Shown here: piece after piece, positions 32,257-49,237 of the stretch
Position numbering within the stretch: position 1 is the first letter of the stretch
How the letters are laid out: the number at the start of each line of letters is the position of its first letter
Source of the DNA: an uncultured Candidatus Bathyarchaeia archaeon
GTDB lineage: Archaea; Thermoproteota; Bathyarchaeia; Bathyarchaeales; Bathyarchaeaceae
DNA: 64,000 bases
Direction of reading: 5' to 3'
NCBI GenBank assembly: GCA_964623205.1
Contig: CAZUQX010000007.1
Span: forward strand, 12,665-76,664
Made by a program: the position numbers and the translations under genes
Notes under the pieces: model-generated
Database searches by the model: none
What the model was told of the DNA's origin: nothing
The model's input: the letters and a program-made list of their open reading frames with translations, nothing else

Positions 32257-32297
32257 AAACTCAACTCCATGCAGATTAGGAGACTAATAACAGCGTA

Positions 32298-32317
32298 TTG
32301 TTGAAAACATCCAACTA
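32298..32317 (+). repeat. attL-like site: core TTGTTGAAAA + inner arm CATCCAACTA
   Basis: Read directly: 32298-32307 is the core and 32308-32317 is the arm. The arm is the exact reverse complement of 49129-49138. Confidence 0.65.
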
Positions 32318-32414
32318 TTTGTTTGATTTTCTGTTTGGGATTTCATCTCTTTCACCAAAACGGTTCTTAGGTATCTCTAAGCTTATTTAAATTATTCGAA
32401 AGGGCTTTTTACAA

Positions 32415-33785: not shown

Positions 33786-33829
33786 TTATGTCGGATTCCA
33801 TCTAAACTATCCAATCATTGTGAAGTGAC

Positions 33830-34342
33830 TCAACCACGATTTTTATCAACCTCGTATTCTGCCTCTCCCTCTTCGACTCCTTTCCTCGCCTTTTCATATG
33901 CTTCTCTGGGAATTTGAAGTGAATTCTGATTTAGTTCGTTTCTAAGACATGAAAATTCCTTCAGGATTTTAGTTAGTTTATCAATCGAGCTTTCATTAAC
34001 AATATCAATCTCTCGGAATATTCTCACTCTGTTTCTCAGCGAATTGTATTTGTTGCCAGCATCTTGATGCGAACAGGTTTTTTCATTGGGATTAAGAAAT
34101 GTAATAATTGCTGTTAGTGCAGCAACGACAATAGCCATGAAAGCAGTAATGATTTCATGATAGGAAAATTGTGTTAGGGCTGAGACTCCAGAAAGTGCAG
34201 CCAATACTACTGCGGGCAAACCCAAATATCGGTGAATATTTCGCCATTTGTTTGCAGCTTCAAAATGTCCTTTTGCCGAATATAGGCAATCTTCTTCTAT
34301 TCTTTTCGCCTCATCAACAATCTTTGCTTTCAGGTCTACCAT
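33830..34342 (-). CDS. SLATT-type 2TM effector-like protein
   Basis: 170 aa. An N-terminal helix (YSAKGHFEAANKW) is followed by two TM helices (LGLPAVVLAALSGVSAL / ITAFMAIVVAALTAIITFL) and a helical tail (HQDAGNKYNSLRNRVRIF). Its start lies 11 nt after the stop of the upstream NTase gene, with GAGGT between them. Confidence 0.6.
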   Translation of the reverse strand: MVDLKAKIVDEAKRIEEDCLYSAKGHFEAANKWRNIHRYLGLPAVVLAALSGVSALTQFSYHEIITAFMAIVVAALTAIITFLNPNEKTCSHQDAGNKYNSLRNRVRIFREIDIVNESSIDKLTKILKEFSCLRNELNQNSLQIPREAYEKARKGVEEGEAEYEVDKNRG

Positions 34343-34353
34343 TTTACTACCTC

Positions 34354-35286
34354 TTAATAATATGAAGGAAAATGAGAATCAAAAACTAGGTTCCACCAGT
34401 AGAAAGCGTCAGAAATCTTTTCATTTTTTTCGGTTTCTCTCGCCTTATTTGCACGAATCAAAGCAGTTTGCAATTTTGAATATGCCTCTTGTTTTTGTGC
34501 TTCAGTTTGGCAAGCAGGAATAACCCCTGATATTCCCATTGGGTCTTGAATTCCTGCAAGACTATTACTATACAATTGGCTGAGGATTTTTCTAACATCA
34601 TATGAATACTCAATATAATCCTCACCAGAGGCGTATTTTGTTACACGTAATTCAAGGTAAAAAGATGAAATAGGAACGTTTCTAAAATACTTCCAAGCCT
34701 TTAAGAATCTAACAAGAGGTTTAACCTTGTAACCTTTCTCTTTATTAACATAAGTAACCCATGAATTATGGGCTTTTGGGGAAGAGTTCATCCATCCTCC
34801 ATTCCCATCGGGAATTTCGTAGATGTTATAGCCATTACTGCTTGTTTTGATGAAATCCGCAGGAACAACCTCAGTTGATTCTGAGGCATCTCTTCCAAAT
34901 GGAACCCAAACGGCAGGTGTTCTTACCGAAACGCCTGTATTTGGAAATCTAACATCAAGGGCATTCCGCATCTTACGAAGAGTTGTAAGGGAGTTTTCAT
35001 TTAAATTGCCTGATGGTATAACAGCGAAATAATCGACATCGCTATAACCACGAATACTGGTTGCATTCCCAAATGACCCTGTTTTGAAAAAATGTGTCAT
35101 TCCAAAGCTTGATACAAGACATGCTTTTATTGAATCACGATGTCCCTTTGCAGCCTCCGATTCTGTCAAAGTTGGCGTAAGACGACTATGAAATTCTTTA
35201 AATCCTTCTTCAACGGTCTTAGCCAAATCCTCACAACTCCGATAGTTTTTTCTTGAAGTAAAATATGAAGAATGGAACGCCACCAA
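34354..35286 (-). CDS. SMODS / CD-NTase-like minimal nucleotidyltransferase (putative second-messenger synthase); start uncertain
   Basis: TGSFGNATSIRGYSDVDYFAVIP (G-S...D-x-D), TEVVPADF (third acidic residue), W..SSPKAH and RFLKAWKYF...SSFYLEL. The ORF-track start is a TTG that overlaps the upstream small ORF. An alternative TTG at 35226 lies just after that ORF's stop. Confidence 0.65.
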   Translation of the reverse strand: MVAFHSSYFTSRKNYRSCEDLAKTVEEGFKEFHSRLTPTLTESEAAKGHRDSIKACLVSSFGMTHFFKTGSFGNATSIRGYSDVDYFAVIPSGNLNENSLTTLRKMRNALDVRFPNTGVSVRTPAVWVPFGRDASESTEVVPADFIKTSSNGYNIYEIPDGNGGWMNSSPKAHNSWVTYVNKEKGYKVKPLVRFLKAWKYFRNVPISSFYLELRVTKYASGEDYIEYSYDVRKILSQLYSNSLAGIQDPMGISGVIPACQTEAQKQEAYSKLQTALIRANKARETEKNEKISDAFYWWNLVFDSHFPSYY

Positions 35287-35431
35287 TTCCAGTAAAGATT
35301 ATCCTGAAAGTTTCGTTATTAAGATAGAGTAAGGAATCAATTACGCTGGCTGTTGCGTAAATCCCGATGATAGCGATTATTGGTATAACAAAGAAGTCTT
35401 TAATCGCCTTTTCAACTCTGTCTTCGCCCAT
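35231..35431 (-). CDS. 66-aa two-TM peptide, first gene of the cassette
   Basis: ATG at 35431 is preceded by GGAGGAG (complement of 35438-35444) with a 6-nt spacer. There are two hydrophobic helices (FFVIPIIAIIGIYATASVI, IIFTGIGGVPFFIFYF). Confidence 0.45.
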   Translation of the reverse strand: MGEDRVEKAIKDFFVIPIIAIIGIYATASVIDSLLYLNNETFRIIFTGIGGVPFFIFYFKKKLSEL

Positions 35432-35437
35432 GTAATT

Positions 35438-35485
35438 CTCCTCCTGATGATAGTTTGTTTAATATTTTGTAGCGATATATTTAAA
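35438..35485 (-). promoter_or_regulatory. SD (GGAGGAG) and TATA-like box (TTTAAATATAT on minus strand) upstream of the 4-gene cassette
   Basis: 35475-35485 ATATATTTAAA lies about 45-55 nt upstream of the ATG at 35431, inside a 187-bp AT-rich gap after the RM gene. Confidence 0.35.
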
Positions 35486-35618
35486 TGTTTGGACATAAAT
35501 ATTAAATTACTCTTTGTTATCAACTGGATTTTTGGTAATTGGCTTTTGAGTTAAACTACCCAAAGAAAAAGAAACATATGGAGAGAGTCAAATGAAACTG
35601 CTAACTCTGAAATGAAAA

Positions 35619-38345
35619 TCATAGATTTCCTTCGATAATCCTTTGCTCTTTCTCGGTTATTCCATAAATCTTGTAAACCAGCTCGTCAATTTGGCAGTTA
35701 ATTTTGTCCATTTCCTTCTCAAGTCTAGCCCGTTCATCTGTCATTTTGTCACCAATTTGGTTTACACGAGCTTTGAGAGACAGCATCCTATTAACAAGTT
35801 GTATTAATGTTTGTTCAGATTCTTGAGCAACTTTTATCGGAAGTTCTTCCAGAAACTTAGTTCTATACCTCAAATAGCCTCCACCCATATGCATACCACC
35901 AAATAATACAAAATAAACAAAAGAAACCAGTTTTGAATTGAGCAAGCCGAGAATATATTCTAATGAAGTGTTTTCATTTTTCAATACCCCAAAATAAACT
36001 CCGCCTTGTGGTATTCTCTTCTCATAATCCATGGTAGCAGTTATTCTTAACGCATCTTCAGCGATGACAATTTTTCTTTTTAAACTGTTTACATACCTTT
36101 TTGATGTTGTGCTTATGACTTTTTTTAAGTTATTTTTTGTTATATAGCTGCCTTTGCTAATTGAACTGTATCTATCGAATTGATATTGTTTCAAAATTTC
36201 GAAATCATTAACAATGTTCTCTTCTAATGTTGTTGGTATTCTTAGCCCTTCAGAAATCTTAAGGTATTTTGATAATTTATCGCATTTTCTCAGTAATTTT
36301 ATAACAATGTCAAATTGTTCTTGGCTAATATTAATTGGGAAGATTTTTGAAGGCAAAACTTCCAAATCCCTTCGTGTTAGCCAATAATTTACAAAATTTT
36401 TATTTAAGAATTCATCACGTGTTGATACCGAACCGATATTAATCCTTTTTACATTTTTTCCCTTTGTAAGAAAAAGAAGAACTGGATAATTTGCAGCCTC
36501 TTTAAAAATATCTAAATGGCTAACACTTATAATTGTGCAATGGCTTGAATTCTTTACAATAATTTCCCTCAGTTTTTCAGCAGAACTGGCAGCACAAAAT
36601 TTGTTCGGCAAGATGAAGCCACATTTCCCACCTTCTTGCAACCACTTGAAAACGCTTTCAATAAACAAATAGTAGATGTCGTATTTTCCATAAGCTGAAC
36701 TAAAAACATCTTTCCAATATGTTTTTTCAACAATTTTTAGGTTATCTACTCTAACATACGGTGGATTTCCGATAACAACATCAAATCCTCCTTCTTTCAT
36801 TATGTCATCGAATTCATCTTCCCATCGAAAAGCTATGTTGCCTGCAATATTTTCATCGTCAATTATCGAGTTTCCCCGCCTGATGCTTTCTTCCAGTAAT
36901 GGTAATCTATGTCCCTTCTCAGCTATTTTGAGTAATAGATTGAGTTGTGCAATTTCAACTGCCTGTTTGTCTAAATCGACACCAAAAATATTGTCTTGGA
37001 GAATTTTTGCCTTTTTTGTAAATGGAATATCAATTTTTTGTTTGTCCAACTGAGTTTGACTATAATCCTTGATATTTTTCTTATAATATTCATCGAAAAT
37101 ATCGAATGCTTTAATCAGGAAGCTACCTGAGCCACAAGCAGGGTCTAATACTCTAATTTCTTCTACGTTGACTTTCTTTTTTTCCAGAATTTTGCCTAGA
37201 GTATTCCTAACGATGTAATCAACGATGTAGGTTGGAGTGTAGTAAATTCCCTGTTCTTTTCTATGTATCCCATTTTTGGTGACTCTTGCTCTTTTTGCAG
37301 TCTTTTTCAAAATGTGACTTAAGTATTGCTCATAGATGTTACCTAAAACGTCAGCATCGATTACTGAAAAATCGTAAGAAATAGAGAAATACTTCTCTTT
37401 TGTGAAATACAACCCCTTTATTATTTCAGATAATATTTCGTTATCAATTTCTAGTTGGTCACACAAATGTTTAGTAAATATCTTGCTGTCATAGTGTTCA
37501 TCAAAGTAACTGAAAATCTCTCTGAGACCTTTTACTAATTTTCCTCTGCCTCTGCTTCTCCATTCCCTTAATTTTGAAATCAAAAGTTTTTCTTCAAGCT
37601 CTTTGTCTTCACAATTTCGAATAAAAATAAGCCTGTCTAAGATTCTTTGAACTGACTCGTCCAACTCTTCTTTTGACAACTTTTCTTTTACGTTTAATTT
37701 CGTTATGCTCTTTGTGAGCATTCTTCTATATTTTGTAAAGTCCTCAAGAAGTTGCTCATCTATGGATGCTTTCTTAGTCTTTTTACTCCGTCTTTCTGCT
37801 GTTTCATCTAACAAACCTTTTTCGAAACTTTCTTTCGACAAAAGCCATAATTCATCAAATCTTTCAAGAAAATCGTCATACGTGATGGTTGTAAAATGGC
37901 TCTGTAAATAGTTAGCTGCCTTCCACTCAGCATTAAGAATTTTCACAGCTTCAAAATCTGTAAGAACTGCCCATGTGCAACCTTTATGCCATGCATAGCT
38001 GATTGCCTGCTCAAAATACTCTTCTTTATCCAAATCTGCTTTTAGTGACTTTGCTTCTAGGTAGAATTTTGGAATTCCATCAATTCTGAAACCATAATCC
38101 ACACGCTTTTTAGAAATTGTTTCTTCGGCAGTAACCTCTTTGGAATCTTGAAAATTCCAACCTAGTGCACGAAATAAAGGTTGAATGAAACCAATTTTAG
38201 TCATCTCTTCATTGTATTCTTTGACTCTATTTTCCTCTACAACTTTGTTGTATTTTTCTACAAGTTCTGCGATTTCGCTTCGAGCTTTTTCTTTGTCCAT
38301 TGTGGATACTAATTTTGTGGTTTCGATTATAACTTTTTGGGGCAT
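35619..38345 (-). CDS. Type IIG restriction endonuclease / N6-adenine DNA methyltransferase fusion (Eco57I-like)
   Basis: 908 aa. The N-terminal PD-ExK nuclease is of HsdR-N type (VDYGFRIDG..FYLEAKS). Methyltransferase motifs are VLDPACGSGSFL (motif I) and VVIGNPPYV (motif IV). The C-terminal specificity region ends in KIYGITEKEQRIIE. Confidence 0.85.
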   Translation of the reverse strand: MPQKVIIETTKLVSTMDKEKARSEIAELVEKYNKVVEENRVKEYNEEMTKIGFIQPLFRALGWNFQDSKEVTAEETISKKRVDYGFRIDGIPKFYLEAKSLKADLDKEEYFEQAISYAWHKGCTWAVLTDFEAVKILNAEWKAANYLQSHFTTITYDDFLERFDELWLLSKESFEKGLLDETAERRSKKTKKASIDEQLLEDFTKYRRMLTKSITKLNVKEKLSKEELDESVQRILDRLIFIRNCEDKELEEKLLISKLREWRSRGRGKLVKGLREIFSYFDEHYDSKIFTKHLCDQLEIDNEILSEIIKGLYFTKEKYFSISYDFSVIDADVLGNIYEQYLSHILKKTAKRARVTKNGIHRKEQGIYYTPTYIVDYIVRNTLGKILEKKKVNVEEIRVLDPACGSGSFLIKAFDIFDEYYKKNIKDYSQTQLDKQKIDIPFTKKAKILQDNIFGVDLDKQAVEIAQLNLLLKIAEKGHRLPLLEESIRRGNSIIDDENIAGNIAFRWEDEFDDIMKEGGFDVVIGNPPYVRVDNLKIVEKTYWKDVFSSAYGKYDIYYLFIESVFKWLQEGGKCGFILPNKFCAASSAEKLREIIVKNSSHCTIISVSHLDIFKEAANYPVLLFLTKGKNVKRINIGSVSTRDEFLNKNFVNYWLTRRDLEVLPSKIFPINISQEQFDIVIKLLRKCDKLSKYLKISEGLRIPTTLEENIVNDFEILKQYQFDRYSSISKGSYITKNNLKKVISTTSKRYVNSLKRKIVIAEDALRITATMDYEKRIPQGGVYFGVLKNENTSLEYILGLLNSKLVSFVYFVLFGGMHMGGGYLRYRTKFLEELPIKVAQESEQTLIQLVNRMLSLKARVNQIGDKMTDERARLEKEMDKINCQIDELVYKIYGITEKEQRIIEGNL

Positions 38346-38747
38346 CTTAGTTAGTCACTTATCTCCCCTACCTTTTTTCGTTGAATCTGATTCTGCATAG
38401 CTATTCCAAAAATCATCTTTTGTTGGAAAGCGGTTTCAAAAGTGTTATTAAGATGGTCAAGTGCGATTATTTTGGGGGTTGACTGAGGATACTGCCTTCT
38501 TAGGAAGTGCATATATCACACCAACTCAGTCATTTCCCCCATATGAATAAGCATTTTCTGTAAAAATTCTCTGATTCTTTCGGTGTCCAGAAAATCGTCC
38601 TTATGTAGGCTTATGTAAATATCCATTTTTTGTGACTTTTTAAGATTTTTAGCGGTTAATTTTGACGAAAAACAAAAAATATTGGTTTTTTAGGCTTTAT
38701 GGATAGTTTTATATGCTGTTTGACCCTAGTTTCTTGCGGTGTGATGT

Positions 38748-39003
38748 ATGCAAAAGAAAAATAAGGGCAAAATTAGCGGAGCGTTGAGGCTGGTTTTTTT
38801 GCTATCTAGCCTCAAAGTTACGTTTCAAAAATTTTGGAGGGTCAAAGCTGTCTAGTTTTTCACGGAAGCATTACAGAGCCATAGCTGAGATAATCCGAAA
38901 CGCTGAAACAAAATATCAGGTAGCTCAAGATTTAGCTGAGATGTTCGCAGCAGATAACTACCGATTCGACTACCAGAAATTCTTCAAGGCTTGCAATTTG
39001 TAG
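38748..39003 (+). pseudogene. Small ORF interrupted by a +1 frame change at a T7 run (frameshifted gene, slippery site or sequencing artefact)
   Basis: The ATG at 38748 opens MQKKNKGKISGALRLVF... The run at 38794-38800 is TTTTTTT. The +1 frame continues without any ATG/GTG/TTG start as ...SSFSRKHYRAIAEIIRNAETKYQVAQDLAEMFAADNYRFDYQKFFKACNL, ending at TAG 39001-39003. Confidence 0.3.
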
Positions 39004-39013
39004 AGGCTTAAAA

Positions 39014-39169
39014 ATGAAGATGCAGATTTTCAAATACAAAGTTAACCGTAGTATGAAAAAGTGTCTGCTAATCGGCATCGAAAAACCAAACAAAGTTGTT
39101 CTGGTTCACATAGGAAAAGTGTTCAAACCCTTAGACGCACAGCGAATAATAGAGCAATGCAAAAGGTGA
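39014..39169 (+). CDS. 51-aa hypothetical protein (below ORF-track cutoff)
   Basis: My own translation: MKMQIFKYKVNRSMKKCLLIGIEKPNKVVLVHIGKVFKPLDAQRIIEQCKR. It ends 4 nt before the TTG start of the ATPase ORF. Confidence 0.3.
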   Translation: MKMQIFKYKVNRSMKKCLLIGIEKPNKVVLVHIGKVFKPLDAQRIIEQCKR

Positions 39170-39173
39170 AAAG

Positions 39174-40448
39174 TTGGTTACGCCAACCAGAGAGCAAATT
39201 ATAGCTTATGCTTTAGAAAAGTGGCACATGGACGAAGCAAGAATGGGCAATCCAGCCTTCGACATTGAACCCGAACTGAGCGAACTGAAAGAAGAGGGTT
39301 ATTTGAGTCTCGCACAATCTGAACTGATGCGAAACCCAAATCTTGACGAATGGGACGCATATAATGAACGCCTAGATAATCTTCAGAAAACTTTGGAAAA
39401 AGAGCAACAAAACGATGTTAATACAAAAACGGTATTAGATGACATCCTCAATTTTGACGATTTGCTTTTGATTGCCAATAAGGGACAGGGAAAAACAAAC
39501 GCTTTGAAGGTCATAAGCTCAGAATTGCGAAAAATTCCAGATACTAGGGTAATAATCTTTGAGACCTTCCCCAAATTCTGCCTAGAATTCGAGGCTATTC
39601 CCTTCATTAAAATACATGATACCGATGTAACAGAAACAGGGCATACGGTAGACATAGAGAGCTACTTCTTGAGACATGAAAGAGACTACACAGTAAAGCG
39701 GGGACACGAAATAAGAGAAGCTCTAGGCAAGAATAGGGACTTAATCTTCACGCTAGAAATAACCGATATTGAAAGAATCGCATTTTTCGTTTACAGCATT
39801 GTTCAATATTTCTACCGTAGGGCATACCTTCGATTATACAAAGGCTATGAGAAAAGAGAAAAGGTAGTTTTCGTTATCGAAGAATCGCAAAATGTCTTTG
39901 ATTCTAGCACAATTTCAAAGAAGCTCTTCAACAGATTGCGGAAAATTTTCTCTGAAGCTAGAAACTTGGATTTGCATTTTATCATGTGCAGTCAACGACT
40001 CCAAGACCTCAACACCAAGATAAGGGGAAGAACTCGTTTAATGTTGGGAAATGTAAGCCTAGACGACTACGAATTGAAAGTTAGACGGTTGCTCAGAAAT
40101 AGCAAACACAAAACTGACATACTAAACTTTGAAAGGGGAACCTTTCTTTATTCAGCTACGGACAAAATAATCAAATTCCCATTATTTGAGACCACAGAGA
40201 AACCCTATGAACTAAACTACAAAGCCGAACCAAAACAAAAAATTGAACCACAAGAAGAGATTAGACACATGAAAAGGAAAAAGCCGAGCCGATGGCAAAA
40301 GCTGAAAGGCTTCCTAAAATTCTGGTCTTGGGGATACGATATTCCAGAGTATCCAAAAGGAAACAGAATCAAAGAAAACAGCTTTGAGGACGAGGACGAA
40401 GAAGACACAGCTTTTGGCGTTCCCATCGATATGTTAGAAGAAGACTAG
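39174..40448 (+). CDS. P-loop NTPase (FtsK/HerA- or plasmid/virus packaging-like ATPase), acidic C-terminal tail
   Basis: 424 aa. Walker A LLIANKGQGKTN, Walker B KVVFVIEESQNVF, then HFIMCSQRLQDL. The C-terminus is EDEDEEDTAFGVPIDMLEED. Confidence 0.55.
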   Translation: MVTPTREQIIAYALEKWHMDEARMGNPAFDIEPELSELKEEGYLSLAQSELMRNPNLDEWDAYNERLDNLQKTLEKEQQNDVNTKTVLDDILNFDDLLLIANKGQGKTNALKVISSELRKIPDTRVIIFETFPKFCLEFEAIPFIKIHDTDVTETGHTVDIESYFLRHERDYTVKRGHEIREALGKNRDLIFTLEITDIERIAFFVYSIVQYFYRRAYLRLYKGYEKREKVVFVIEESQNVFDSSTISKKLFNRLRKIFSEARNLDLHFIMCSQRLQDLNTKIRGRTRLMLGNVSLDDYELKVRRLLRNSKHKTDILNFERGTFLYSATDKIIKFPLFETTEKPYELNYKAEPKQKIEPQEEIRHMKRKKPSRWQKLKGFLKFWSWGYDIPEYPKGNRIKENSFEDEDEEDTAFGVPIDMLEED

Positions 40449-40498
40449 CTAGTTAATTCTTGGTATGTATTGGCGGTTCATAACTTTAAAGACACTGT

Positions 40499-40729
40499 AT
40501 GAGATTTGATAGTATTATGAAAGCCAAGAAGCAAACTTCAAATCCATTACTTACGCAAACAAATCAATGTTGTAAGGGTTTTCTTCAGAATCAGGTAAAC
40601 GTTCTACAAGCTATAAGAAACACACTAGAAGAATACACTAAGGAAGAAGTCATAAAACACATTGACCAAATACTGAATTATTACGAACAAAAAATTGAAG
40701 AACTCCCCAAACCAAAGTCAACGACCTGA
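40499..40729 (+). CDS. Hypothetical 76-aa protein
   Basis: ORF only; no recognisable motif. Confidence 0.3.
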   Translation: MRFDSIMKAKKQTSNPLLTQTNQCCKGFLQNQVNVLQAIRNTLEEYTKEEVIKHIDQILNYYEQKIEELPKPKSTT

Positions 40730-41311
40730 ACTTGCGTTTTGGATTAGAATAAAGAAAATAAGCGATACTCCGAGTTTAAATCAAAAGTTTTAGTGCCATC
40801 ACAAATAACTAAACAGTATCGCTTAATCATCTCACATATCCCCACCCTCTTTCATTTTTTTGATTTTTTGAAAGCCTATCTCTAAAAATTGGCAACATAC
40901 CCGAAAACCACAAGCTAACCATTAATCCAACATTAGAGGCATTTTAACTGAGAAATATTCTATAAAAATACTCTATAAGAAATCTAGAGGATTCGAACAA
41001 AATTCTCTTGAAAAATAGCTTGAGCCTTAATGCTTTCTCAAAGACTCTCCAAAAATCCTAGCTTTAATTATATCCTTATGTGAGCTTATGAGGGGGGGGC
41101 TTTTTGTTTGTGTCTCTCATTTTTTCTTAAAAGAAGCTGTATCCTGCCCTCTCTTTCATAAATTCTAGTTATGTTCCAAGTCAGTTAATCTTATTTTCCG
41201 TCAATCAAAACTAAGCTATGGCATAGAATAAACTACAACCAGATACACAGCCCTTTTTCTTTGTTCCATAACTAATTTTTTTATCATGTGCTGAAATTTT
41301 TATTGTTGAAT

Positions 41312-41341
41312 TAGTTGGATGTTGTTAGTAAGTTCCAACAA
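41312..41341 (+). repeat. Internal degenerate attP-like site (24/30 identical to the attP reconstructed from the island ends)
   Basis: TAGTTGGATG-TTGTTAGTAA-GTTCCAACAA compared with the predicted TAGTTGGATG-TTGTTGAAAA-CATCCAACTA. A core-like TTGTTGAA also sits at 41303-41310. Confidence 0.5.
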
Positions 41342-41557
41342 AAAGTTGGGTTTTTTATCCTGTGATGGGTTTAGTTAATCGTCATTTATTGTTAAAATTG
41401 ATAGATTTTTCGCATGTTTTGTAGCAATAATGCAACAATTTAATGAGAAAACACTCCCAGAACGTCCTGACCCCTTCTACTAACTGCATAAACAATACAC
41501 AAAACATAGTCTATCGGTTTCGGTTGGAGTAAAAAATATGTTCAAATTGGCTAGGGC

Positions 41558-41586
41558 ATATACATTGTCACGGTATATACATTGTC
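41558..41586 (+). promoter_or_regulatory. Tandem ATATACATTGTC repeats (17-bp period) about 100 bp upstream of the TIR-like gene
   Basis: 41558-41569 and 41575-41586 are identical 12-mers. They are followed by TTTGTAG repeats. Confidence 0.4.
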
Positions 41587-41683
41587 GTTTTTTTGTAGCG
41601 TTTCTTTGTAGTGTGTAGTTTATTGGTTTTCGTTAGGACAATAATCTTATGAATTGCATTGTCCCAATTGTAACTGATTCAGA

Positions 41684-42583
41684 ATGCCTTTCTATCACGT
41701 TAGGATAACCAAGAAAAGCAGAACAACAAACGACAGGCTTGCATTAGACCTCTCCAAAGATGAATTGATGGCGAGAATCGTTAATCCTTTCTTAGAAGGA
41801 AAAACATTCATGTGTGGTGGGGAGCCGATTGACCCTTTTGATGTTGCTGTAATTCACATCAATGAAACAGAAAGAAAATCTGCTGACCTAATTCCTGAAA
41901 TCAAAGCTGAGAGAGCAAGGTCTAGAGTTGCTGTGGCAATTTCTAATGAGTGGTATGTTACTAAGAAGGGGAAAGATGTGACTAGAGAGTTGATTACTCA
42001 TCCTCCAAAAAAGCAAGAAACTGTGAAAGTTACTGTTGAACTGAGTAAAAACGTGTTTATTGTTCATGGCAGAGACCATGAGCCAATGAAAGAGCTAAAA
42101 ACAATGCTCTTGGAATTTGGTCTCAACCCTATTGTTCTTCATGAACAACCAAGCGGAAGCAGAACAATTGTAGAAAAATTAGAGAAATATTCTGATGTTG
42201 GTTACGCTTTTGTGATTTTAACTCCAGAAGATGTTGGATGTTTGAAAAATAAAATTAGGGAAAAGATAAACTCAGTTCTTAAACTTACTGAAGACAAAAA
42301 ACCAAGGTCTTTGATAGCTGACATTCATTCTATAGGAGTAATACGTGCTTATATGCATGAAATGAATGCATATCTTAGTCCTAGAGCCCGTCAAAATGTT
42401 GTTTTGGAGTTTGGCTATTTCATGGGCTTGTTGAGTCGTGACCGAGTTTGTTGTTTGCTTAAAGGAGACGTAGAAAAGCCCTCAGACATGCACGGAATAG
42501 TATACGTTCCTTTCAAGGATTCTGTTGAAGAAAGACGCAGTATGATAATTAAGGAACTTAAAGAAGCTGGTTTTGAACTTTAA
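41684..42583 (+). CDS. TIR-like domain protein (Cap12/PycTIR-type predicted nucleotide-binding/NADase effector) with unknown about 120-aa N-terminal domain
   Basis: The C-terminal half reads NVFIVHGRDHEPMKELKTMLLEFGLNPIVLHEQ...YAFVILTPEDVG...ARQNVVLEFGYFMGLLSRDRVCCLLKGDVEKPSDMHGIVYV. This matches my memory of the TIR-like family pattern (fIvHG.d...a.vllTpDD...aRqNV.fElGyf...PSD..G..y). Confidence 0.65.
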   Translation: MPFYHVRITKKSRTTNDRLALDLSKDELMARIVNPFLEGKTFMCGGEPIDPFDVAVIHINETERKSADLIPEIKAERARSRVAVAISNEWYVTKKGKDVTRELITHPPKKQETVKVTVELSKNVFIVHGRDHEPMKELKTMLLEFGLNPIVLHEQPSGSRTIVEKLEKYSDVGYAFVILTPEDVGCLKNKIREKINSVLKLTEDKKPRSLIADIHSIGVIRAYMHEMNAYLSPRARQNVVLEFGYFMGLLSRDRVCCLLKGDVEKPSDMHGIVYVPFKDSVEERRSMIIKELKEAGFEL

Positions 42584-42589
42584 AAGTGA

Positions 42590-42871
42590 TTAGGCTTTTC
42601 CCCTTGAAATTAATCTTCTTGCTATGCCTATCGTGTTTAAGGCTACATTTTCCGTGCACAAAAATTCGTCCATGAAATCGTCTTTTACTTCTGCTATCAG
42701 TTCTTGAACCTGTTCTATTAGTATCCACTCTTCTGGGTCTGAGATGTTTTGCTTCTCGGAAATGATTCCATATTTGTTTTCGTATTCATCCATGAGTTTC
42801 AGGTAATTTTTTATTGTGCCCCTATGGTTCGCAAGTATCCATTCGATTTTTTTTCGTCTAGTCTGTGGCAT
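42590..42871 (-). CDS. Hypothetical 93-aa protein (last gene of a 3-gene minus-strand unit)
   Basis: ORF only. It starts 12 nt downstream of the 42884 gene. Confidence 0.4.
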   Translation of the reverse strand: MPQTRRKKIEWILANHRGTIKNYLKLMDEYENKYGIISEKQNISDPEEWILIEQVQELIAEVKDDFMDEFLCTENVALNTIGIARRLISRGKA

Positions 42872-42883
42872 ATCATTTTTTCC

Positions 42884-43234
42884 TCATGGTATTTTTGGCG
42901 ATAGTTGTTTTCTTAATTTGCATAACTTTTCAATTGTTTCTCGGTCATGTGTTCGGATTAGGCTCTTGTCTATGAGGGCAACTAAGCCATGTTTCAAAAT
43001 CTCTTCTAAGCTGTATGCGTCATAGAACTTTTTGATTTCATTTGCGTAAATGAGTGTTTCAGTTGAAATTCTGATTGATGTGCCCGATTTTTTGGCTAAC
43101 TTTAGCGGTTCTGTGGCGAACTCGACCTTTTCTGGTTTAACTAAATTCAAAGCTTCTAGCGGAATTTCCAGTTTGAGAGGAACTGACTTTTTGCCTTTCA
43201 GTCGCTTATCGTCAGGTTTTATCAGTTCTGTCAT
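42884..43234 (-). CDS. Hypothetical 116-aa protein
   Basis: Its start overlaps the stop of the upstream gene by 4 nt (43231-43234), which suggests translational coupling. Confidence 0.4.
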   Translation of the reverse strand: MTELIKPDDKRLKGKKSVPLKLEIPLEALNLVKPEKVEFATEPLKLAKKSGTSIRISTETLIYANEIKKFYDAYSLEEILKHGLVALIDKSLIRTHDRETIEKLCKLRKQLSPKIP

Positions 43235-44022
43235 GGTCTCAATCCTCTCTGAATGATTGTTGTTCCGCTTTTTGCTTCAATCAATGCATTGTAGGCTTTG
43301 ACTTCCTCAACATATTTTTTGAATTCTTTAAACAGTTTTTCTGCCTTTTGTATCGTTTTTTCGTTGTATGCTATTGTCTCCTTTTCTTCTTTGGTTATTC
43401 GCTTATTGTATTGCATAATTTTCTTATTTTGTTCCTCAACTTTTTTGAAAAATTGTTTCGCTTCTTTGATTGTTTTAAGAGTTTCAGATTTTTTGTTTTC
43501 AGTTTCTTCAACAAATTTGAGAACTTTTTTTAAAAGCTCTTTGACCTGTTTTTTTCGACTCTTCTCAAGAGCCAAAATCTTATCCTGTTTCTCTCTGACC
43601 CGTTGCATCCAATCATGAAAATTTTGGATTAGGTCTTTTCTTGTTTCAGCGTCCTTTCTGGTTTGTTCCAGCAAACAGTTCTGAAACACATCTACAAAGG
43701 TTTTGAAATTTTGTAATTGGTCTAAGTATTTGGCACGGATTTCCTCATTCAATTCTCTGGTTTCTTGTTCGTCTTCTGCGTGTTGTTGCCTTAAAGCATC
43801 AATTTCGTCCAAAATTATTGACTCAATATCTTCTAACTGTTCTTTCATGGTTTCCTGAAAACTTTTTTTCCGTAGGCTTCTCTGTCCAGCTAACCAACTT
43901 GAAGCCCTCCCCAAATCAACCTCTTCCGATTCGACTGATTCGTTTTCTTCTTCAATTTCTTCCGAATCGATTTCTTCGCTTTTCAATTTTTTTAGGTAAG
44001 CCTCCATCTTTTTGTTCGTCAA
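43231..44022 (-). CDS. 263-aa highly charged coiled-coil protein
   Basis: An acidic N-terminus (EEIDSEEIEEENESVESEE) is followed by E/K/Q-rich heptad-like sequence throughout. Confidence 0.5.
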   Translation of the reverse strand: MTNKKMEAYLKKLKSEEIDSEEIEEENESVESEEVDLGRASSWLAGQRSLRKKSFQETMKEQLEDIESIILDEIDALRQQHAEDEQETRELNEEIRAKYLDQLQNFKTFVDVFQNCLLEQTRKDAETRKDLIQNFHDWMQRVREKQDKILALEKSRKKQVKELLKKVLKFVEETENKKSETLKTIKEAKQFFKKVEEQNKKIMQYNKRITKEEKETIAYNEKTIQKAEKLFKEFKKYVEEVKAYNALIEAKSGTTIIQRGLRP

Positions 44023-44053
44023 ATTGAATTCCTCATTCTTTGCATGCAGTTTG

Positions 44054-44082
44054 TATACATATATTATACATAATTATACATA
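44054..44082. promoter_or_regulatory. Three direct TATACATA boxes at 11/10-bp spacing in a divergent promoter region
   Basis: The boxes are at 44054-44061, 44065-44072 and 44075-44082. CACGTGAT at 44227-44234 and the 10-bp palindrome ATCACGTGAT at 44268-44277 lie downstream. Confidence 0.4.
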
Positions 44083-44229
44083 TAAGTTTTATTGTTAATA
44101 CAAGAAGAATATATGTGTGAATCAACATAATATATTGTGTTTCATAGACACCAGAATTTGAAACGTTTCTAGGTAAAAAGGGAACATCCAAATTCCTTCT
44201 TTTCTTTTAACAAAAATTCTTATCAGCAC

Positions 44230-45108
44230 GTGATTAAAACATTTTTTGTCAAATATTTTTTTATTTCATCACGTGATAACAAAAAAAGCATAAACGATAC
44301 CTTTATAACGAACTTAACGAATACATTTCATGATAAAATGGATTGGCGGAACATGACCGATATTGAAGAAAAAGCTGTTGGAATTGCTGAAATTATTTGG
44401 CATGACCGATATTTTCGAAAAGGATTCTTTAGACAATTTTACGATTGCCTTCATGAAGCCCTTAAGATTTGTGACCAAAAATATCCTCAAAGTCAGTTGG
44501 ATTCTTTCAGGATTGCTGTTCCGAAATGGCGATTCAAACGGGAAATCCAATTAGCTAATGATTGTTATCGACTTTTCAAAATCCATAATTCCCTAGAAGA
44601 TAGAAAGAAAATGAGACATACGAGATATTTTTGGTTCATGGACGGAATTTCTAAGAAGCGAACTGAGCTTGATTGTTGGGATACGGTTAGAGTTTTTGAC
44701 GGTCAAATTTTGCCGTGTGGTTCCTGTTGCATAATTGAATCTCCCCATTTTATGCAACTGAAAGCAAAGAAAACGGATACATTAACTCAATTAATTGTTC
44801 ATGAAATCGTAGATGCCTTAGAATCAAAGGATTGCTGTAGGTTACAAGAAGAAACCAAGAAACGAAACTCGTGTGCTAATGGCTATAAATCCCATGAAAA
44901 ACACCACGACCAAATCATACTCGCAGAGCAATGGCTCTATAACCGATTCCATAAAAAGAGACCCGATTACTACACACCATTCGAAGACGAACAGTTACGA
45001 ATCCTATATCCGAAAGCCTCTAGAGAGACACTTGAAAAAGAATTGAAATTCCGTTCTTGGAAGTCTATCCGCTCAAGAGCTTACGACTTGGGAATAAAAA
45101 GAATTTGA
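44230..45108 (+). CDS. Hypothetical protein with C-terminal Myb/SANT-like helix region; true start probably the ATG at 44338
   Basis: The ORF-track GTG start runs through the CACGTGAT palindromes. The first Met (MDWRNMTDIEEK) is codon 37. The C-terminus is LRILYPKASRETLEKELKFRSWKSIRSRAYDLGI. Confidence 0.45.
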   Translation: MIKTFFVKYFFISSRDNKKSINDTFITNLTNTFHDKMDWRNMTDIEEKAVGIAEIIWHDRYFRKGFFRQFYDCLHEALKICDQKYPQSQLDSFRIAVPKWRFKREIQLANDCYRLFKIHNSLEDRKKMRHTRYFWFMDGISKKRTELDCWDTVRVFDGQILPCGSCCIIESPHFMQLKAKKTDTLTQLIVHEIVDALESKDCCRLQEETKKRNSCANGYKSHEKHHDQIILAEQWLYNRFHKKRPDYYTPFEDEQLRILYPKASRETLEKELKFRSWKSIRSRAYDLGIKRI

Positions 45109-45193
45109 GAATCTTCAATCTAGCCTTTATATATCAAAACGCATGGGGAAACGCATGATTCCAAAATTAGCCAAAAAGGAGGTGTGACAAATA

Positions 45194-46288
45194 TTGACAC
45201 AATCCAGTAAGTCAGTTAATCAATCCAAAAATACGCATGATAATAACCATAAATCACAATATACTATAAAAAAGTCCAAACATCAAACTAGACCTACCCT
45301 TAGACCTCTCCAAACTTATAAAAACATGATAGAAAAACATTGTAAACCCTTTAATTTGGCTTGGTTGGATTCTGGAATTGATTATCTAATAACCTGTATC
45401 GACAACTACGATTTTACGCATGATTTTTCTTTGACCCAGAAGGAAATCCCAGAACTTAAAGATGTGCTACGGCTCATGATTGTTAGAGGGATGTATGTCA
45501 GGTCTCTTGACGTGGTAAATAAACTTAAAATCTCTAGAAGAACCGCACAAAAATATCTTCTAAGACTTTGTAAATTAAGATGGTGTATGCGTGGTCGTTG
45601 GGTAACGTATAACGACATAAATCCATTCCTGCAATTTCTGATTTACCTTTCTCCAAAAAAGATGGGGCAGCTCATACATTTCTTCGCTCCTAGGCAGGTC
45701 GATTTGTTGAACCTCTTATCATACTCACTCTTGGAAGCTATAGATGAAAAAGTTAATGATGTCAAATTCATTTGGAGTCAAAAAGAACCAGATTTTGGCA
45801 ATGACTATTTTCCGTCCCTTCAGCATATTGGAAAATTCTATCCATATTTCAACGGAACGGTTCAAATTAAAGCCGAAACAGAAAGCCGAGATTATTATTC
45901 GACCCTTCCGTATAACATCCATTGGACGGGAAGGAATTCTCACATTACCCTTCCAATTCCCTTCAAATTCTATGGAGTTCAAGATGTTGGATACTCATCC
46001 AAAATTAACAAGCTGAAAGTCCATTTCGACAATTCGATAACAGTTGGGATTCCTTTAGGGTCTGCCAGTTATTCAAGTCGAAAATTACTAAATGAATGGG
46101 GACTAAAGCATTGGAGCGATATGGCAAATAGCTTTATGAACAAATACTGGAAAAACGAATATGTAGAGACCTTTAATTTCCAAACCCATGAAGAGATAAT
46201 AAAGAATAGATTACTCTACAAAGCAATCCCGATTAAACAGGTATCACAAAAGACATTTCTCTTAAAGCAATGTCTAGCTGAGATATAA
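45194..46288 (+). CDS. Hypothetical 364-aa protein with putative wHTH (possible replication/partition-type function)
   Basis: LKISRRTAQKYLLRLCKLRW is an HTH-like stretch. There are no enzymatic motifs. Confidence 0.4.
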   Translation: MTQSSKSVNQSKNTHDNNHKSQYTIKKSKHQTRPTLRPLQTYKNMIEKHCKPFNLAWLDSGIDYLITCIDNYDFTHDFSLTQKEIPELKDVLRLMIVRGMYVRSLDVVNKLKISRRTAQKYLLRLCKLRWCMRGRWVTYNDINPFLQFLIYLSPKKMGQLIHFFAPRQVDLLNLLSYSLLEAIDEKVNDVKFIWSQKEPDFGNDYFPSLQHIGKFYPYFNGTVQIKAETESRDYYSTLPYNIHWTGRNSHITLPIPFKFYGVQDVGYSSKINKLKVHFDNSITVGIPLGSASYSSRKLLNEWGLKHWSDMANSFMNKYWKNEYVETFNFQTHEEIIKNRLLYKAIPIKQVSQKTFLLKQCLAEI

Positions 46289-46389
46289 GTTCATTTTCTA
46301 TTCAAAAACCACTCTTTCTCAATTTCATTATGCGATATTGTAAACAAAATGTAAAAACTTATAAGTAAGTTTATACATATATTTATTAG

Positions 46390-46638
46390 ATGATAAAAAT
46401 GCAGCATAAATATGCATTCATAAGAATAAGAAAAGAAACAAAGGAAAAGCTTGATACATGGGCAAAAATTTGTGACAAGAAATTGATTAACATGCTAGAT
46501 GAAATCATAGACGCTTATCGGGACACTATTCTAATCAGCAACATCAATCGTTTACTAAACAGTCCAAACGCAGACGATGTTTTCTATGTCGCTAACGAAG
46601 TCGCTAAATCAATCATTAAGAGGGATAACAATGACTGA
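46390..46638 (+). CDS. Small possible ribbon-helix-helix protein
   Basis: AFIRIRKETKEKLDTWAKICDKKLINMLDEIIDAY has a beta-strand plus two-helix pattern. A TATACATA box at 46372-46379 suggests a leaderless start at ATG 46399. Confidence 0.4.
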   Translation: MIKMQHKYAFIRIRKETKEKLDTWAKICDKKLINMLDEIIDAYRDTILISNINRLLNSPNADDVFYVANEVAKSIIKRDNND

Positions 46639-47341
46639 ACCAATTTGTGAAAATTGTGGAAAGCCATTAAACGAATGTCAATGCGAAGAACCAAAGATTT
46701 CAGTTTCAAAAGCTAGAGAGCCTGACAGGATTGTCAGAATTGAATCTGTGCAAGTCCCTAGTAAAGAAGAGTTTGAGAAGGTCAAAAAACAAAAAGAGGA
46801 TTATGAACGAATTATCGCACTTCAGGCTGAAAAAAGCTTCAGAGACGAGCTTTCAGAATTTTTGTCTCAAGTAGATGACGATGAAAAACGGGAAGCAATT
46901 GAGAAAATGATTGACAACGACCCAGAAAGGTTAGAAAATGCTAAAATGATGACTTCAATTCTGGAACAGGCAATTCATGCTGGTGGTGGTCGAGTTACTG
47001 GAAGAAGAATGCCTAGCGGAAAAGCCTCATTGCCTCAAAATAATTCAGGTTTTTCAGACAGTTACAAAGAATACGTTGATACGTTGTATGAAACTCTCAA
47101 AGACCCAAGTAAATCTGACCTAGAAAAAGAATCAGCAAATCAGATGCTTGACCAATTGTTCGGTGAAATGGTGAAAGGACTTCGTGTAGCTAAAGGAAAA
47201 TATGGTCATGCCGTGCCATCATACCAAGTTACGGAGTGTCCTAACTGTCGCTTGTTGCTTACTGGAGAACGGGGCGAAGAAATCGATTATTGTCCTCGCT
47301 GTGGATGGCAGAAATACGTGAAGTCTGCGAGACGGGCTTAG
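46631..47341 (+). CDS. Zinc-ribbon protein (Cys pairs at both termini)
   Basis: The ATG at 46631 overlaps the upstream stop (ATGACTGA). N-terminal CENCGKPLNECQC and C-terminal CPNCRLLL...CPRCGW. The ORF track lists 46577 as an upstream alternative start. Confidence 0.5.
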   Translation: MTEPICENCGKPLNECQCEEPKISVSKAREPDRIVRIESVQVPSKEEFEKVKKQKEDYERIIALQAEKSFRDELSEFLSQVDDDEKREAIEKMIDNDPERLENAKMMTSILEQAIHAGGGRVTGRRMPSGKASLPQNNSGFSDSYKEYVDTLYETLKDPSKSDLEKESANQMLDQLFGEMVKGLRVAKGKYGHAVPSYQVTECPNCRLLLTGERGEEIDYCPRCGWQKYVKSARRA

Positions 47342-47380
47342 GCTGTTTTTTATGCCTACCGTCTTAGCCATCATGGATTA

Positions 47381-47827
47381 ATGGATGGAAGAAAAATGCT
47401 AAGAAAAAAGAAAGTTAGTCTCGTCTTGTCTGTTGCCCTTTCTGACAGGGAAACATTCAAAGTTCTACCTGACAAGAAGCAACAAAAGAACATCTACGAC
47501 AGAGTTCGCAATAGGCTAGTTCGTCAGGGAGTAGAGGACGATTTACTGCAAACTAGATTAATTGCTGAAATCCGTTCTGAACTCTTTAAACTTCAACCCA
47601 AATTCAACCCAAAATCTTCTGAATCCGAAATTCAAAGCAATAAAGAATCATTTTTTGACAGAAATTTTAGAATTAGAGGTTTTGACGTTTGGAGCGAACA
47701 CGAAGAGTCTATAGACCCAATTCAGCAACTTCAGGACAATTACAATCGAACCGTAGAAGAGGGATTCAGAGATGTTTTCTGTCCTATCTGTCATTGCGAA
47801 AAATCTTGCTGTCGATGTCACGAATAA
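47381..47827 (+). CDS. Hypothetical 148-aa protein with Cys-rich C-terminus
   Basis: The C-terminus is CPICHCEKSCCRCHE. Confidence 0.4.
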   Translation: MDGRKMLRKKKVSLVLSVALSDRETFKVLPDKKQQKNIYDRVRNRLVRQGVEDDLLQTRLIAEIRSELFKLQPKFNPKSSESEIQSNKESFFDRNFRIRGFDVWSEHEESIDPIQQLQDNYNRTVEEGFRDVFCPICHCEKSCCRCHE

Positions 47828-47843
47828 AAAAAGTGGAAGAAGA

Positions 47844-49124
47844 TTATTCTTCCGCTTGCTTTTTCTCTAGTTTCTTAATTACGCCTTTGTAGTCAGCCAA
47901 CAGGTCTAAAGCTGGTTGAACTTGTGTCTGCAAATCAAAAATTGTCTGTTTTGCTTCGGACAGTTCTTTTTGCTGATTATTGGTGGTTTCTTGAAGTAAA
48001 TCCACTCTTGTCTTAAATGCAGAGTTTTCCCTCTCAATCTGCTGAATAGCCTCCTTCATTTTCTCTATTTGTTCCTGTTGATTCTGCCTAGTTTTTCCTG
48101 ATATATCTCCATTGAGAGACAAATTCTTGTAAGCCAAACGAAAGATTTTCTCAGCTTGGTCTTCCAGTTCTTCGTATGTCATGTCAGAAACGCTTACAGA
48201 TTTTGCACAGATTATTTTCGCCATGTCTTTATCTATTCGTCTTAATCTGCTGAAAGTGAATTTTCGGATACAATGAAATCTAACTCTCTTTTTCCCGATG
48301 TTGATGTTTGCTTTAGTTACTAATCTTCGAAGTTTTTTGTTTAATCCTTCATTTGAGATGGGTTTGTCTGGTTTGCTGTTGCACCAGATGTATTTTGGGA
48401 GTTTTCCTTTTTTCTTTTCCAGCACCTTCAAGTATGCATTAACACTTTCTATGGCTTCAGGAGTCAAAAATGAGATTGGCTGAATTCCTGTTTTTTGTCG
48501 TGGCTGACCTATCCATTTGGCAAAGTCTAAGCCTCTCTGTTTAGCATCATCAATAATCTCTCTAAGTTTCTGTGCCTCTATCCTAAGAAAATCCTTGCTT
48601 CCCTGTCCATAGCTAACCGCCAATGAAATCAATGCTTTTTCTGCGACATCTCCAAAATGGAACATCTTGCGTAAATCGTCTTGACTGAATCGATATTCAT
48701 CTTGTGGCATCTGAGTAGGTGCAAAAGAATCCATTACGCCTTCTATTGCTTTACAATTTTGATGATAAAACGCTAATACTGCACTCCCCATTTCATTGCA
48801 ATAGTTTGTTGAATATGGTTTGTTGCTTTTTGGATTAATCTGCTTTCTGAACCAGTTATAGAACTCGATTATTCGGTTAGAAATGTCTCTTTCCCATTCA
48901 TCCAAGTTGTTGAGCATTTTTTCCTGTTTATATTCTTCAATCAATTGTTCTGGGGTCTTGTCAGTCCAGAAACAGTATTTCTTAAATCTGCTCGAATGGC
49001 TCCGCTTCGTAGATTCTTTGCATCTAGGAAAATACTTGAGGTAGTCAGCGTTTTTCTTGCTAATCATTTCTGGTTTTTGGTTTTCTTCATATTCTGTTTT
49101 AGGGTTTATGGATTCAAAATCCAA
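47844..49124 (-). CDS. Tyrosine recombinase / integrase with about 90-aa C-terminal coiled-coil extension
   Basis: 426 aa. VRFHCIRKFTFS (H-x-x-R) is followed by AKSVSVSDMTYEE (candidate catalytic Tyr). The N-terminal region resembles a SAM-like core-binding domain. TTG start per the ORF track. The gene abuts the attR-like site. Confidence 0.7.
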   Translation of the reverse strand: MDFESINPKTEYEENQKPEMISKKNADYLKYFPRCKESTKRSHSSRFKKYCFWTDKTPEQLIEEYKQEKMLNNLDEWERDISNRIIEFYNWFRKQINPKSNKPYSTNYCNEMGSAVLAFYHQNCKAIEGVMDSFAPTQMPQDEYRFSQDDLRKMFHFGDVAEKALISLAVSYGQGSKDFLRIEAQKLREIIDDAKQRGLDFAKWIGQPRQKTGIQPISFLTPEAIESVNAYLKVLEKKKGKLPKYIWCNSKPDKPISNEGLNKKLRRLVTKANINIGKKRVRFHCIRKFTFSRLRRIDKDMAKIICAKSVSVSDMTYEELEDQAEKIFRLAYKNLSLNGDISGKTRQNQQEQIEKMKEAIQQIERENSAFKTRVDLLQETTNNQQKELSEAKQTIFDLQTQVQPALDLLADYKGVIKKLEKKQAEE

Positions 49125-49128
49125 CTTG

Positions 49129-49148
49129 TAGTTGGATGTTGTTGAAAA
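49129..49148 (+). repeat. attR-like site: inner arm TAGTTGGATG + core TTGTTGAAAA
   Basis: Read directly. It lies 5 bp outside the integrase ORF start. The adjacent 49121-49135 CCAACTtgtAGTTGG is itself a 6-bp-arm palindrome. Confidence 0.65.
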
Positions 49149-49237
49149 TAAGCTTTTTCCAGAAAAACCAAGCGAACCATGAACTCCACTTAGAATAGAA
49201 GGTTAAAGGTTTTTAGCTTTAGCCTGTTTAAGTTACA

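Follow-up and report, generated by a model that had tools for sequence, protein, structure and literature searches.

A degenerate internal attachment site in an integrative element of Bathyarchaeia, possibly the scar of an earlier integrase-made join

Composite staphylococcal cassette chromosome (SCC) and arginine catabolic mobile element (ACME) islands arise by successive insertions at one site. They contain at least three attachment (att) repeats, and some of their sub-elements lack a recombinase. Archaeal elements with tyrosine recombinases form arrays in which a single site is used repeatedly (Krupovic et al. 2019, PMC6563490), and hybrid elements have been proposed to arise when recombination follows a tandem insertion (Badel et al. 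2020, PMC7253208). In an Asgard element, the att motif is found 'adjacent to, and within' the integrated element, and a sub-element circularizes (PMC11529989). Here we analyze an island of 16,841 bp (32308-49148) in a 64,000-nucleotide stretch of an uncultured Candidatus Bathyarchaeia archaeon (GCA_964623205.1, contig CAZUQX010000007.1, positions 12,665 to 76,664; hereafter the window, to which coordinates refer unless another locus is named). The island is a site-specific integrative element, with a core repeat at both ends and an integrase gene at one of them. It also contains an att-derived sequence in its interior, at which, according to the original prediction, two fused or tandem elements meet, only one of them encoding the integrase. 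We find that the backbone of the island spans this internal site. Our preferred, still tentative reading (probability about 0.45) is that an earlier join made by the integrase left the site as a scar, most likely a hybrid junction, within one composite element.

Like the SCC and ACME islands, our island contains an internal att copy; those islands differ in their serine recombinases (Ccr), their intact internal repeats, their documented separate excision, and their bacterial hosts. Two further systems resemble the internal site in logic only. Secondary (pseudo-att) insertion by lambda Int produces hybrid junctions with one authentic arm and part of the overlap, and heterospecific lox and FRT spacer variants combine the same arms with a different overlap and do not recombine with the wild-type site. 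Like our island, the archaeal arrays combine a site-specific integrase with repeats of the core, and an internal att copy is expected where their elements join. In contrast to these arrays, neither side of the internal site is recognizable as a complete element: the island has a single integrase and a single ATPase, its backbone also occurs in single elements, its internal core has changed, and neither a second integrase nor a remnant of one is present. The elements Yucahu-i/mini-Yucahu-i and iMGE-xvi of Atabeyarchaeia (Valentin-Alvarado et al. 2024, PMC11529989) have their motif at the borders and inside, as our island does, and very different integrases use one motif there, just as three integrase lineages do here. 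In those cases, however, reads provide evidence of circles and the 11-bp motif is identical, whereas our internal copy is degenerate and known from sequence alone.

The ends of the island carry the 10-bp core TTGTTGAAAA in direct repeat, at 32298-32307 (attL) and 49139-49148 (attR); these and the other features lie on the + strand unless stated otherwise. Three relatives, Ca. Bathyarchaeum sp. CP070820.1 (L062) and two metagenome-assembled genomes (MAGs; L063 and L064), have an empty site that reads ATTAGGAGACTAATAATACTTCA-TTGTTGAAAA-CAGCCTTTTTTCTGAAAAACCAAG, with one core copy, between the same deacetylase and winged helix-turn-helix (wHTH) genes. The shared gene order around these empty sites indicates that the island is one clean insertion at the core. 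The host half of attB on the deacetylase side (ATTAGGAGACTAATAACAGCGTA, 32275-32297) adjoins the core in all three empty sites and occurs once in the window, and the half on the wHTH side (TAAGCTTTTTCCAGAAAAACCAAGC) lies at 49149-49173. Inward from attL, the core is followed by CATCCAACTA (32308-32317), the beginning of a P' arm C-ATCCAAC-TATTT-GTTTGAT (32308-32327), which is a dyad of two half-sites and an inverted repeat of the arm at the right end. This P arm, ATCCAAC-TTGTA-GTTGGAT-G (49119-49138), is again a dyad; it overlaps the integrase start, ends in TAGTTGGATG (49129-49138), and gives z = -4.5 when folded as a DNA hairpin. attP is symmetric, (ATCCAAC-N5-GTTGGAT)-G-core-C-(ATCCAAC-N5-GTTTGAT). 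The GC content is 0.35-0.36 in the island and 0.44-0.45 in its flanks. An alternative layout, with the host motif as an element arm and the island nested in another element, is ruled out by the empty sites.

We compared the interior of the island to the attP rebuilt from its ends, the 30-mer TAGTTGGATG-TTGTTGAAAA-CATCCAACTA. Positions 41312-41341 match it at 24/30 bases, as against 24 for the true attL and 23 for attR, and in a scan of the whole window these three sites rank at the top (41312, 24; attL at 32288, 24; attR at 49129, 23). The maximum reached in 2000 Markov simulations of island length was 23, with 0/2000 at 24. The left arm TAGTTGGATG (41312-41321) is perfect (10/10), and it is followed by an altered core TTGTTAGTAA (41322-41331, 7/10) and a right arm GTTCCAACAA (41332-41341, 7/10), in agreement with the counts first reported. 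The arm together with five core bases forms a 15-mer, TAGTTGGATGTTGTT, that is found exactly at 41312 and 49129 only and is thus identical to attR; the expected number of matches to it with up to two mismatches in the window is 0.15. To the left of the arm, the core-like TTGTTGAA had been read correctly at 41303-41310, and as ATTGTTGAAT (41302-41311) this core-like sequence abuts the arm directly. Its TATTGTTGAA portion at 41301-41310 equals 32296-32305 at attL, a 10-nt match that represents a truncated second core. To the right, a degenerate second arm G-TTCCAAC-AAAAA-GTTGGGT is followed by the integrase-leader-like TTTTTATCC (together 41332-41363). Its TTCCAAC-AAAAA-GTTGGGT portion (41333-41351) is a dyad that resembles the dyads of both real arms, and the att similarity is longer than first noted, continuing at 13/16 into the integrase leader (GTTGGGTTTTTTATCC versus GTTGGATTTTGAATCC). 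Three of the four half-sites of attP are present, and the inverted arms GTTGGAT and TTCCAAC are spaced by 12 nt, as in attP. The sequence AACAAAAAGTT occurs once in the 64 kb, at the internal site, in the version seen 5' of the integrase genes in the loci L009 and L011. The approximately 60 bases at 41301-41363 are genuine att-derived sequence, a defective copy of the integration site of the island. It is hardly credible that an AT-rich, terminator-like hairpin (TCCAAC-AAAAA-GTTGGG plus a T run) merely resembles the att arms by coincidence. The region is AT-rich and a scan for terminator-like sites does pick 41334-41350 (hairpin and T run), but one such site was found where 0.7 are expected and the DNA fold z-score is only -0.94. 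The simulations, the exact 15-mer confined to 41312 and 49129, and the adjoining core fragment all speak against coincidence. Another, weak att-like match at 14428 (20-21/30) was attributed to chance.

The way in which the internal site deviates from attP is informative. All six mismatches fall within the last 15 positions (15/15 matches, then 9/15), three of them in the core, a clustering with a hypergeometric probability C(15,6)/C(30,6) = 0.008. This pattern suggests a hybrid, with two parents meeting within the core, rather than even decay. A related element may have inserted in tandem or at a secondary site, with most of it lost thereafter, or modules may have been exchanged. Had DNA been deleted internally, from one junction of a nested insertion to the other, the truncated core TATTGTTGAA would remain beside the arm. 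One arm and five core bases would then remain those of the live site, while the rest of the core and the second arm would stem from other DNA or have decayed. Exchange by tyrosine recombinases generally requires homologous overlap regions. Since 3/10 core positions differ from the core of attL, attR, and attB, strand exchange of the internal site with the live sites should fail; the site should be inert toward attL, attR, and attB, and consequently the island should excise only as a whole, by attL x attR recombination. Both the scar origin and the inertness of the site are what we infer here. The fallback proposal that a decayed core locked two elements together fits the altered core. The orientation of the internal site relative to attP, given as the same in the original prediction, is ambiguous, because attP is a near-palindrome: the site scores 24/30 on the + strand and 23/30 on the - strand, and a hand count over 50 nt slightly prefers the inverted reading (35 versus 31).

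An internal att copy can be read as the middle junction of a tandem pair. The left part (E1, 32308-41311) would then be a defense cassette without a recombinase, mobilized in trans, now or formerly, by the integrase of the right part (E2, 41312-49148). We consider such a pair rather unlikely, and the arguments are not all on one side. The internal site has the P-O-P' layout of a middle junction, and tandem arrays of archaeal tyrosine-recombinase elements at one att site are known (PMC6563490, PMC7253208). E1 does lack a recombinase, as Pfam searches confirm, and tblastn with 32 members of the integrase family returned only noise; this includes a candidate integrase pseudogene beside the site (E ~0.4-1.5, 40619-40894, + strand), which we rejected. 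The unrelated element L061 of the same family, whose integrase is 26% identical to ours and which is inserted in the same host motif (repeat AAAAGCTAGTTTT), can be read likewise: a minimal int-143aa-ATPase unit is closed by a copy of arm plus core, and behind it comes a 6.4-kb segment without an integrase, up to the live arm and core. L060 has a probable att repeat 70 nt past its ATPase gene, indicating that an ATPase-proximal terminus exists in the family. Set against this, the paired core genes of the element family are split between the two halves: the HerA-like ATPase gene lies in E1, and the integrase gene and the genes for a 148-aa and a 254-aa protein lie in E2. The same order and orientation, int - 148-aa - 254-aa ... 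ATPase, are found within the single elements L015, L019, and L065-67, the last an element of about 17 kb. The backbone therefore spans the internal site, and with the hallmark ATPase of the family in E1, the data do not support reading E1 as an integrase-less cassette served by E2.

The locus L014, on contig Ga0307431_1000374, allowed us to look across the junction itself. It has no ATPase homologue, its integrase is of another clade (47% identity), and its arms differ from ours. Even so, L014 is collinear with our island from the integrase through the 148-aa, 254-aa, and 93-aa genes and two non-coding blocks to a restriction-modification (RM) gene. Block 1, left of the internal site (40838-41241, without an open reading frame (ORF) of 42 or more aa), is 66% identical to L014 13483-13081, with homology extending to about 41290 by local alignment; block 2, right of the site (41384-41509), is 75% identical to L014 12892-12767. 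In L014, the two blocks are contiguous, with about 80-190 nt of other sequence and no att-like segment between them. Alignments of this intervening sequence to the arm-plus-core and to the right half of our site were no better than those of shuffles (163 and 188 of 500). The idea that a copy of L014's own arm lies at the syntenic place gained no support, the segment ranking only 47-104 of 383 when windows were ranked without bias. A gapped motif, CTGTTA(N0-3)GGCT, occurs twice in the 16-kb L014 locus, in its att arm (4642-4654) and at 12901-12928. The latter copy, at the syntenic place, sits inside an 8-bp perfect palindrome, TAACAGTT-GCCTTA-AACTGTTA, and may be a coincidence.

Composition and occupancy likewise give no sign of two elements. 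The tetranucleotide correlation between E1 and E2 is 0.964, compared with 0.958 between the two host flanks, and values determined half by half are uniform, so that the k-mer comparison set out in the original prediction reveals no difference. Neither E1 nor E2 was found alone in the three empty sites or in about 70 related loci, a thin sampling, and no locus joining a host flank to the sequence on either side of 41312 was found in this small sample. A tandem array should have an intact, matching overlap in the middle, whereas the core here matches at 7/10 positions, with its mismatches clustered, and the outermost left half-site is missing, as is any integrase remnant. Its units should also be self-contained and distinguishable, whereas here the backbone is divided, the composition is alike, and the flanks of the junction are contiguous in L014. 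An apparent excess of the heptamer GTTGGAT in E2 (six on the + strand) proved to lie entirely in + strand genes or att sites; without the att copies, 5 remain versus ~2 expected, which is not significant. What stands of the two-element proposal is an att-derived junction and an integrase-borne insertion; its separate E1 and E2 find no support in gene content, in L014, in composition, or in occupancy. With neither half seen on its own and the motif absent from L014, the sole comparator over the junction, the claim fails by the very observations named for its refutation, on present data from one comparator and three empty sites.

Several observations sit less well with an old scar. The internal site is identical over 15 nt to the live attR, while the flanking non-coding DNA has diverged by 25-34% from L014; either the event was recent, or this half-site is under selection. 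The junction is, moreover, covered by a single comparator. In L061, an internal arm-plus-core copy is located 150 nt downstream of the ATPase gene (ATACT--AAGCTAGTTTTCACCA versus ATACTAAAAGCTAGTTTTCAACA, 20/21 with a 2-nt gap). An unbiased window-rank test compared segments of each of the two elements with the att sites of that element; the non-coding region downstream of the ATPase gene makes up ~7% of each. The best internal att match falls in this region in both cases, with rank 1/332 in the window and rank 1/188 in L061. These points weigh against a simple scar, and the recurrence in two elements hints at a function or a systematic mechanism. No internal att copies were found in L014, L015, L017, L019, L054, and L060, and a 15-nt match in L056 belongs to the far-end arm of that element. 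The copy in L061 keeps both att-site accretion and a function for the site in play. Accretion directed by att sites may recur at the end of the ATPase module, which would generalize the idea behind the original prediction; alternatively, the integrase may bind near an origin-like region.

A functional site would be either an accessory site bound by the integrase close to a replication origin or control region, or a heterospecific recombination site with the same arms and a different overlap, which would pair only with its own copy, for example, in the resolution of circular dimers. Such a role could account for an arm and five core bases that are perfect amid diverging non-coding DNA, and for inverted arms that retain the 12-nt spacing of attP. 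It would also agree with the arm-plus-core copy at the same relative place in L061, where the stretch downstream of the ATPase gene contains eight TTTACGGACA iterons, an origin-like feature. At least 500 nt of non-coding sequence downstream of the ATPase gene is, in addition, common in the family. We nevertheless regard a functional site as improbable. We found no counterpart of it in L014, L015, and L019, its second arm and outer half-site are degenerate, and dimers could already be resolved through attP; neither an Rfam family nor any other conserved structure turned up, the Rfam search over 38300-42000 giving a single, sub-threshold match. It is quite doubtful, too, that the internal site works as a second attachment site in a modular system, sharing the arms but having an overlap of its own. 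If it were, the integrase could assemble, lock, or swap large modules beside the ATPase/origin region, such as the block of Shedu, cyclic oligonucleotide-based antiphage signaling system (CBASS), and RM genes or integrase-less segments like that of L061. Defense cargo would then be gained by att-directed accretion and not by illegitimate recombination. For annotation, the island should be treated as a single element that carries an att relic inside it, rather than as a satellite with its helper. Such relics record the growth of archaeal islands and the exchange of modules. The second case at the same relative position, in L061, makes integrase-driven accretion testable in the family.

The integrase (47844-49124, - strand) is distant from characterized recombinases in sequence. 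It scores 24.4 bits against PF00589, under the cut-off of 27.1, and a profile search of PDB sequences with it found no recombinase. Residues His-284, Arg-287, Tyr-317, and Lys-211 are invariant among 32 homologues and have lambda-like spacing (the first arginine is not assigned). An AlphaFold model built with these homologues has a predicted local distance difference test (pLDDT) score of 87.5, and its top Foldseek matches in the PDB are XerA (E = 3e-7), IntI4, lambda Int, XerH, and Cre. The model thus predicts a divergent tyrosine recombinase with a fold of the lambda Int/Xer/Cre type, extended by a C-terminal coiled coil. Related integrases are found in MAGs of Bathyarchaeia and in sediment or peat metagenomes. 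A further 'integrase' match in the window, at 9117-9347, is due to chance and lies in GatE.

The integrase gene starts 4 nt from the P arm. In the circular form (49100-49148 joined to 32308-32420), its frame is open through the core, which codes for FSTT, and an upstream ATG is gained; the integrated form has only the TTG start at 49124. Since homologues align only from about residue 24-28, the att site may lie in a leader and not in the coding part. Judged from these sequences, integration may separate the integrase from its start or promoter, in a mild version of the gene split known from elements of the Sulfolobus spindle-shaped virus (SSV) type. In L009 (95-147) and L011 (240-292), whose integrases are 63-68% identical to ours, the core is inverted relative to the integrase gene. 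These loci read aTGTTGAAAA-CATCCAAC-AAAAA-GTTGGAT-int, whereas the window and L007 read TTTTCAACAA-CATCCAAC-..., and their elements would insert in the opposite orientation. Their AAAAA spacer is that of the internal site in the window. The 9-kb element L056 is bounded by a 31-nt direct repeat (4201-4231/13227-13257) at a different host site, and its integrase-proximal palindrome GAAAC-AAAAA-GTTTC recurs exactly near the far end (13078-13092). A dyad on each side of the core seems to be general in this integrase family, as far as these sequences indicate.

The ATPase (39174-40448), the hallmark backbone protein, has more than 160 homologues with 46-80% identity, among which a Walker A GxGKT motif and an acidic EES motif are invariant. 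Sequence-only searches gave weak matches, and the family has no Pfam or NCBIfam assignment. The structural model (pLDDT 79) is matched in Foldseek by HerA, SIR2-HerA, and the packaging NTPase B204 of STIV2 (template modeling score to target 0.66), HerA and B204 being the best matches, and it predicts a P-loop fold of the HerA/FtsK superfamily, packaging-ATPase type. Seven other element types (L015, L017, L018, L019, L060, L061, and L065-67) pair the gene with a tyrosine integrase, and members of the ATPase family are numerous in Bathyarchaeia and Asgard-rich metagenomes. None of the IMG/VR, INPHARED phage, and PLSDB plasmid collections contains a relative of the family. IMG/VR searches with DNA patterns and with the integrase and ATPase proteins and alignments found nothing related; 19 hits to CATCCAAC-N5-GTTGGATTT are unrelated phage DNA, and a first scan of genome contigs gave nothing relevant. 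Our analysis delimits a family of Bathyarchaeia integrative elements, apparently undescribed, that combine a divergent integrase with a coiled-coil tail, a HerA-like ATPase, and varied defense cargo, and that are absent from the phage, plasmid, and IMG/VR collections searched. An ATPase identical to ours is encoded on a 17,687-nt Logan contig from another assembly (P0340), about the size of the island, and this contig may represent the same element, either separate or circular.

The remaining backbone and cargo genes are arranged around the internal site. Left of the ATPase gene, and assigned by Pfam and PADLOC, lie four - strand defense genes: a Shedu-like SduA (32415-33785), a 2TM/SLATT effector (33830-34342), a SMODS cyclase (34354-35286), and a Type IIG RM protein (35619-38345). 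To the right of the site, a candidate defense gene with a TIR domain (41684-42583; PDC-S35/CAP12-Pycsar TIR) is cargo without a counterpart in L014. The genes for the 254-aa (46577-47341) and 148-aa (47381-47827) backbone proteins precede the integrase gene, and their homologues adjoin the integrase in other loci (L012, L013, L014, L015, L025, L034, L057, and L065-67). The island also contains ORFans, and there is no tRNA gene in the 64-kb window; a tRNA or other non-coding RNA as the target or product of the site was accordingly rejected, the one Rfam match being below threshold. Outside the island, genes for a fructose-1,6-bisphosphatase (FBPase) and the deacetylase form the left host flank and wHTH, AsnC-like, and ArgRS genes the right one; the empty sites and the conserved synteny identify the latter three as host genes. 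Downstream of the ATPase gene and a 76-aa gene, ~950 nt without credible ORFs hold non-coding blocks 1 and 2. This region contains an imperfect palindrome, TTGTAGCAATAATGCAACAA, at 41422-41441 and a direct repeat, ATATACATTGTC, at 41558-41569 and 41575-41586; it may be an origin or control region.

The site into which the island has inserted is itself a conserved, palindrome-rich intergenic motif of ~65 nt, CAT-ATTAGGAGnCTAATA...TTGTTGAAAA...CAG..TTTTTCTGAAAAACCAAG. We located it in the window (32275-32307 and 49149-49173), in the empty sites (L062 6853-7050; L063; L064), and in L015 (2193-2253), L046 (4873-4917), L060 (11835-11878), and L061 (20-60 and 9640-9689). It occurs in several unrelated host contexts, for example, beside the genes for S7, aEF1A, aIF5B, and adenylate kinase, and is targeted by at least three integrase lineages, namely, the window/L007 type, the clade of L001, L012, L019, and L020, and L061 (26% identity). 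Many metagenome contigs end at or near the core of this motif. In two loci, a second full copy (45-65 nt) is found in inverted orientation 5-7 kb upstream of the integrase-adjacent one (L015, 2193-2253 versus 9300-9360; L046, 4873-4917 versus 9804-9848), and the pairs bracket essential host genes. These paired motifs could be two natural copies or the result of an integrase-mediated chromosomal inversion.

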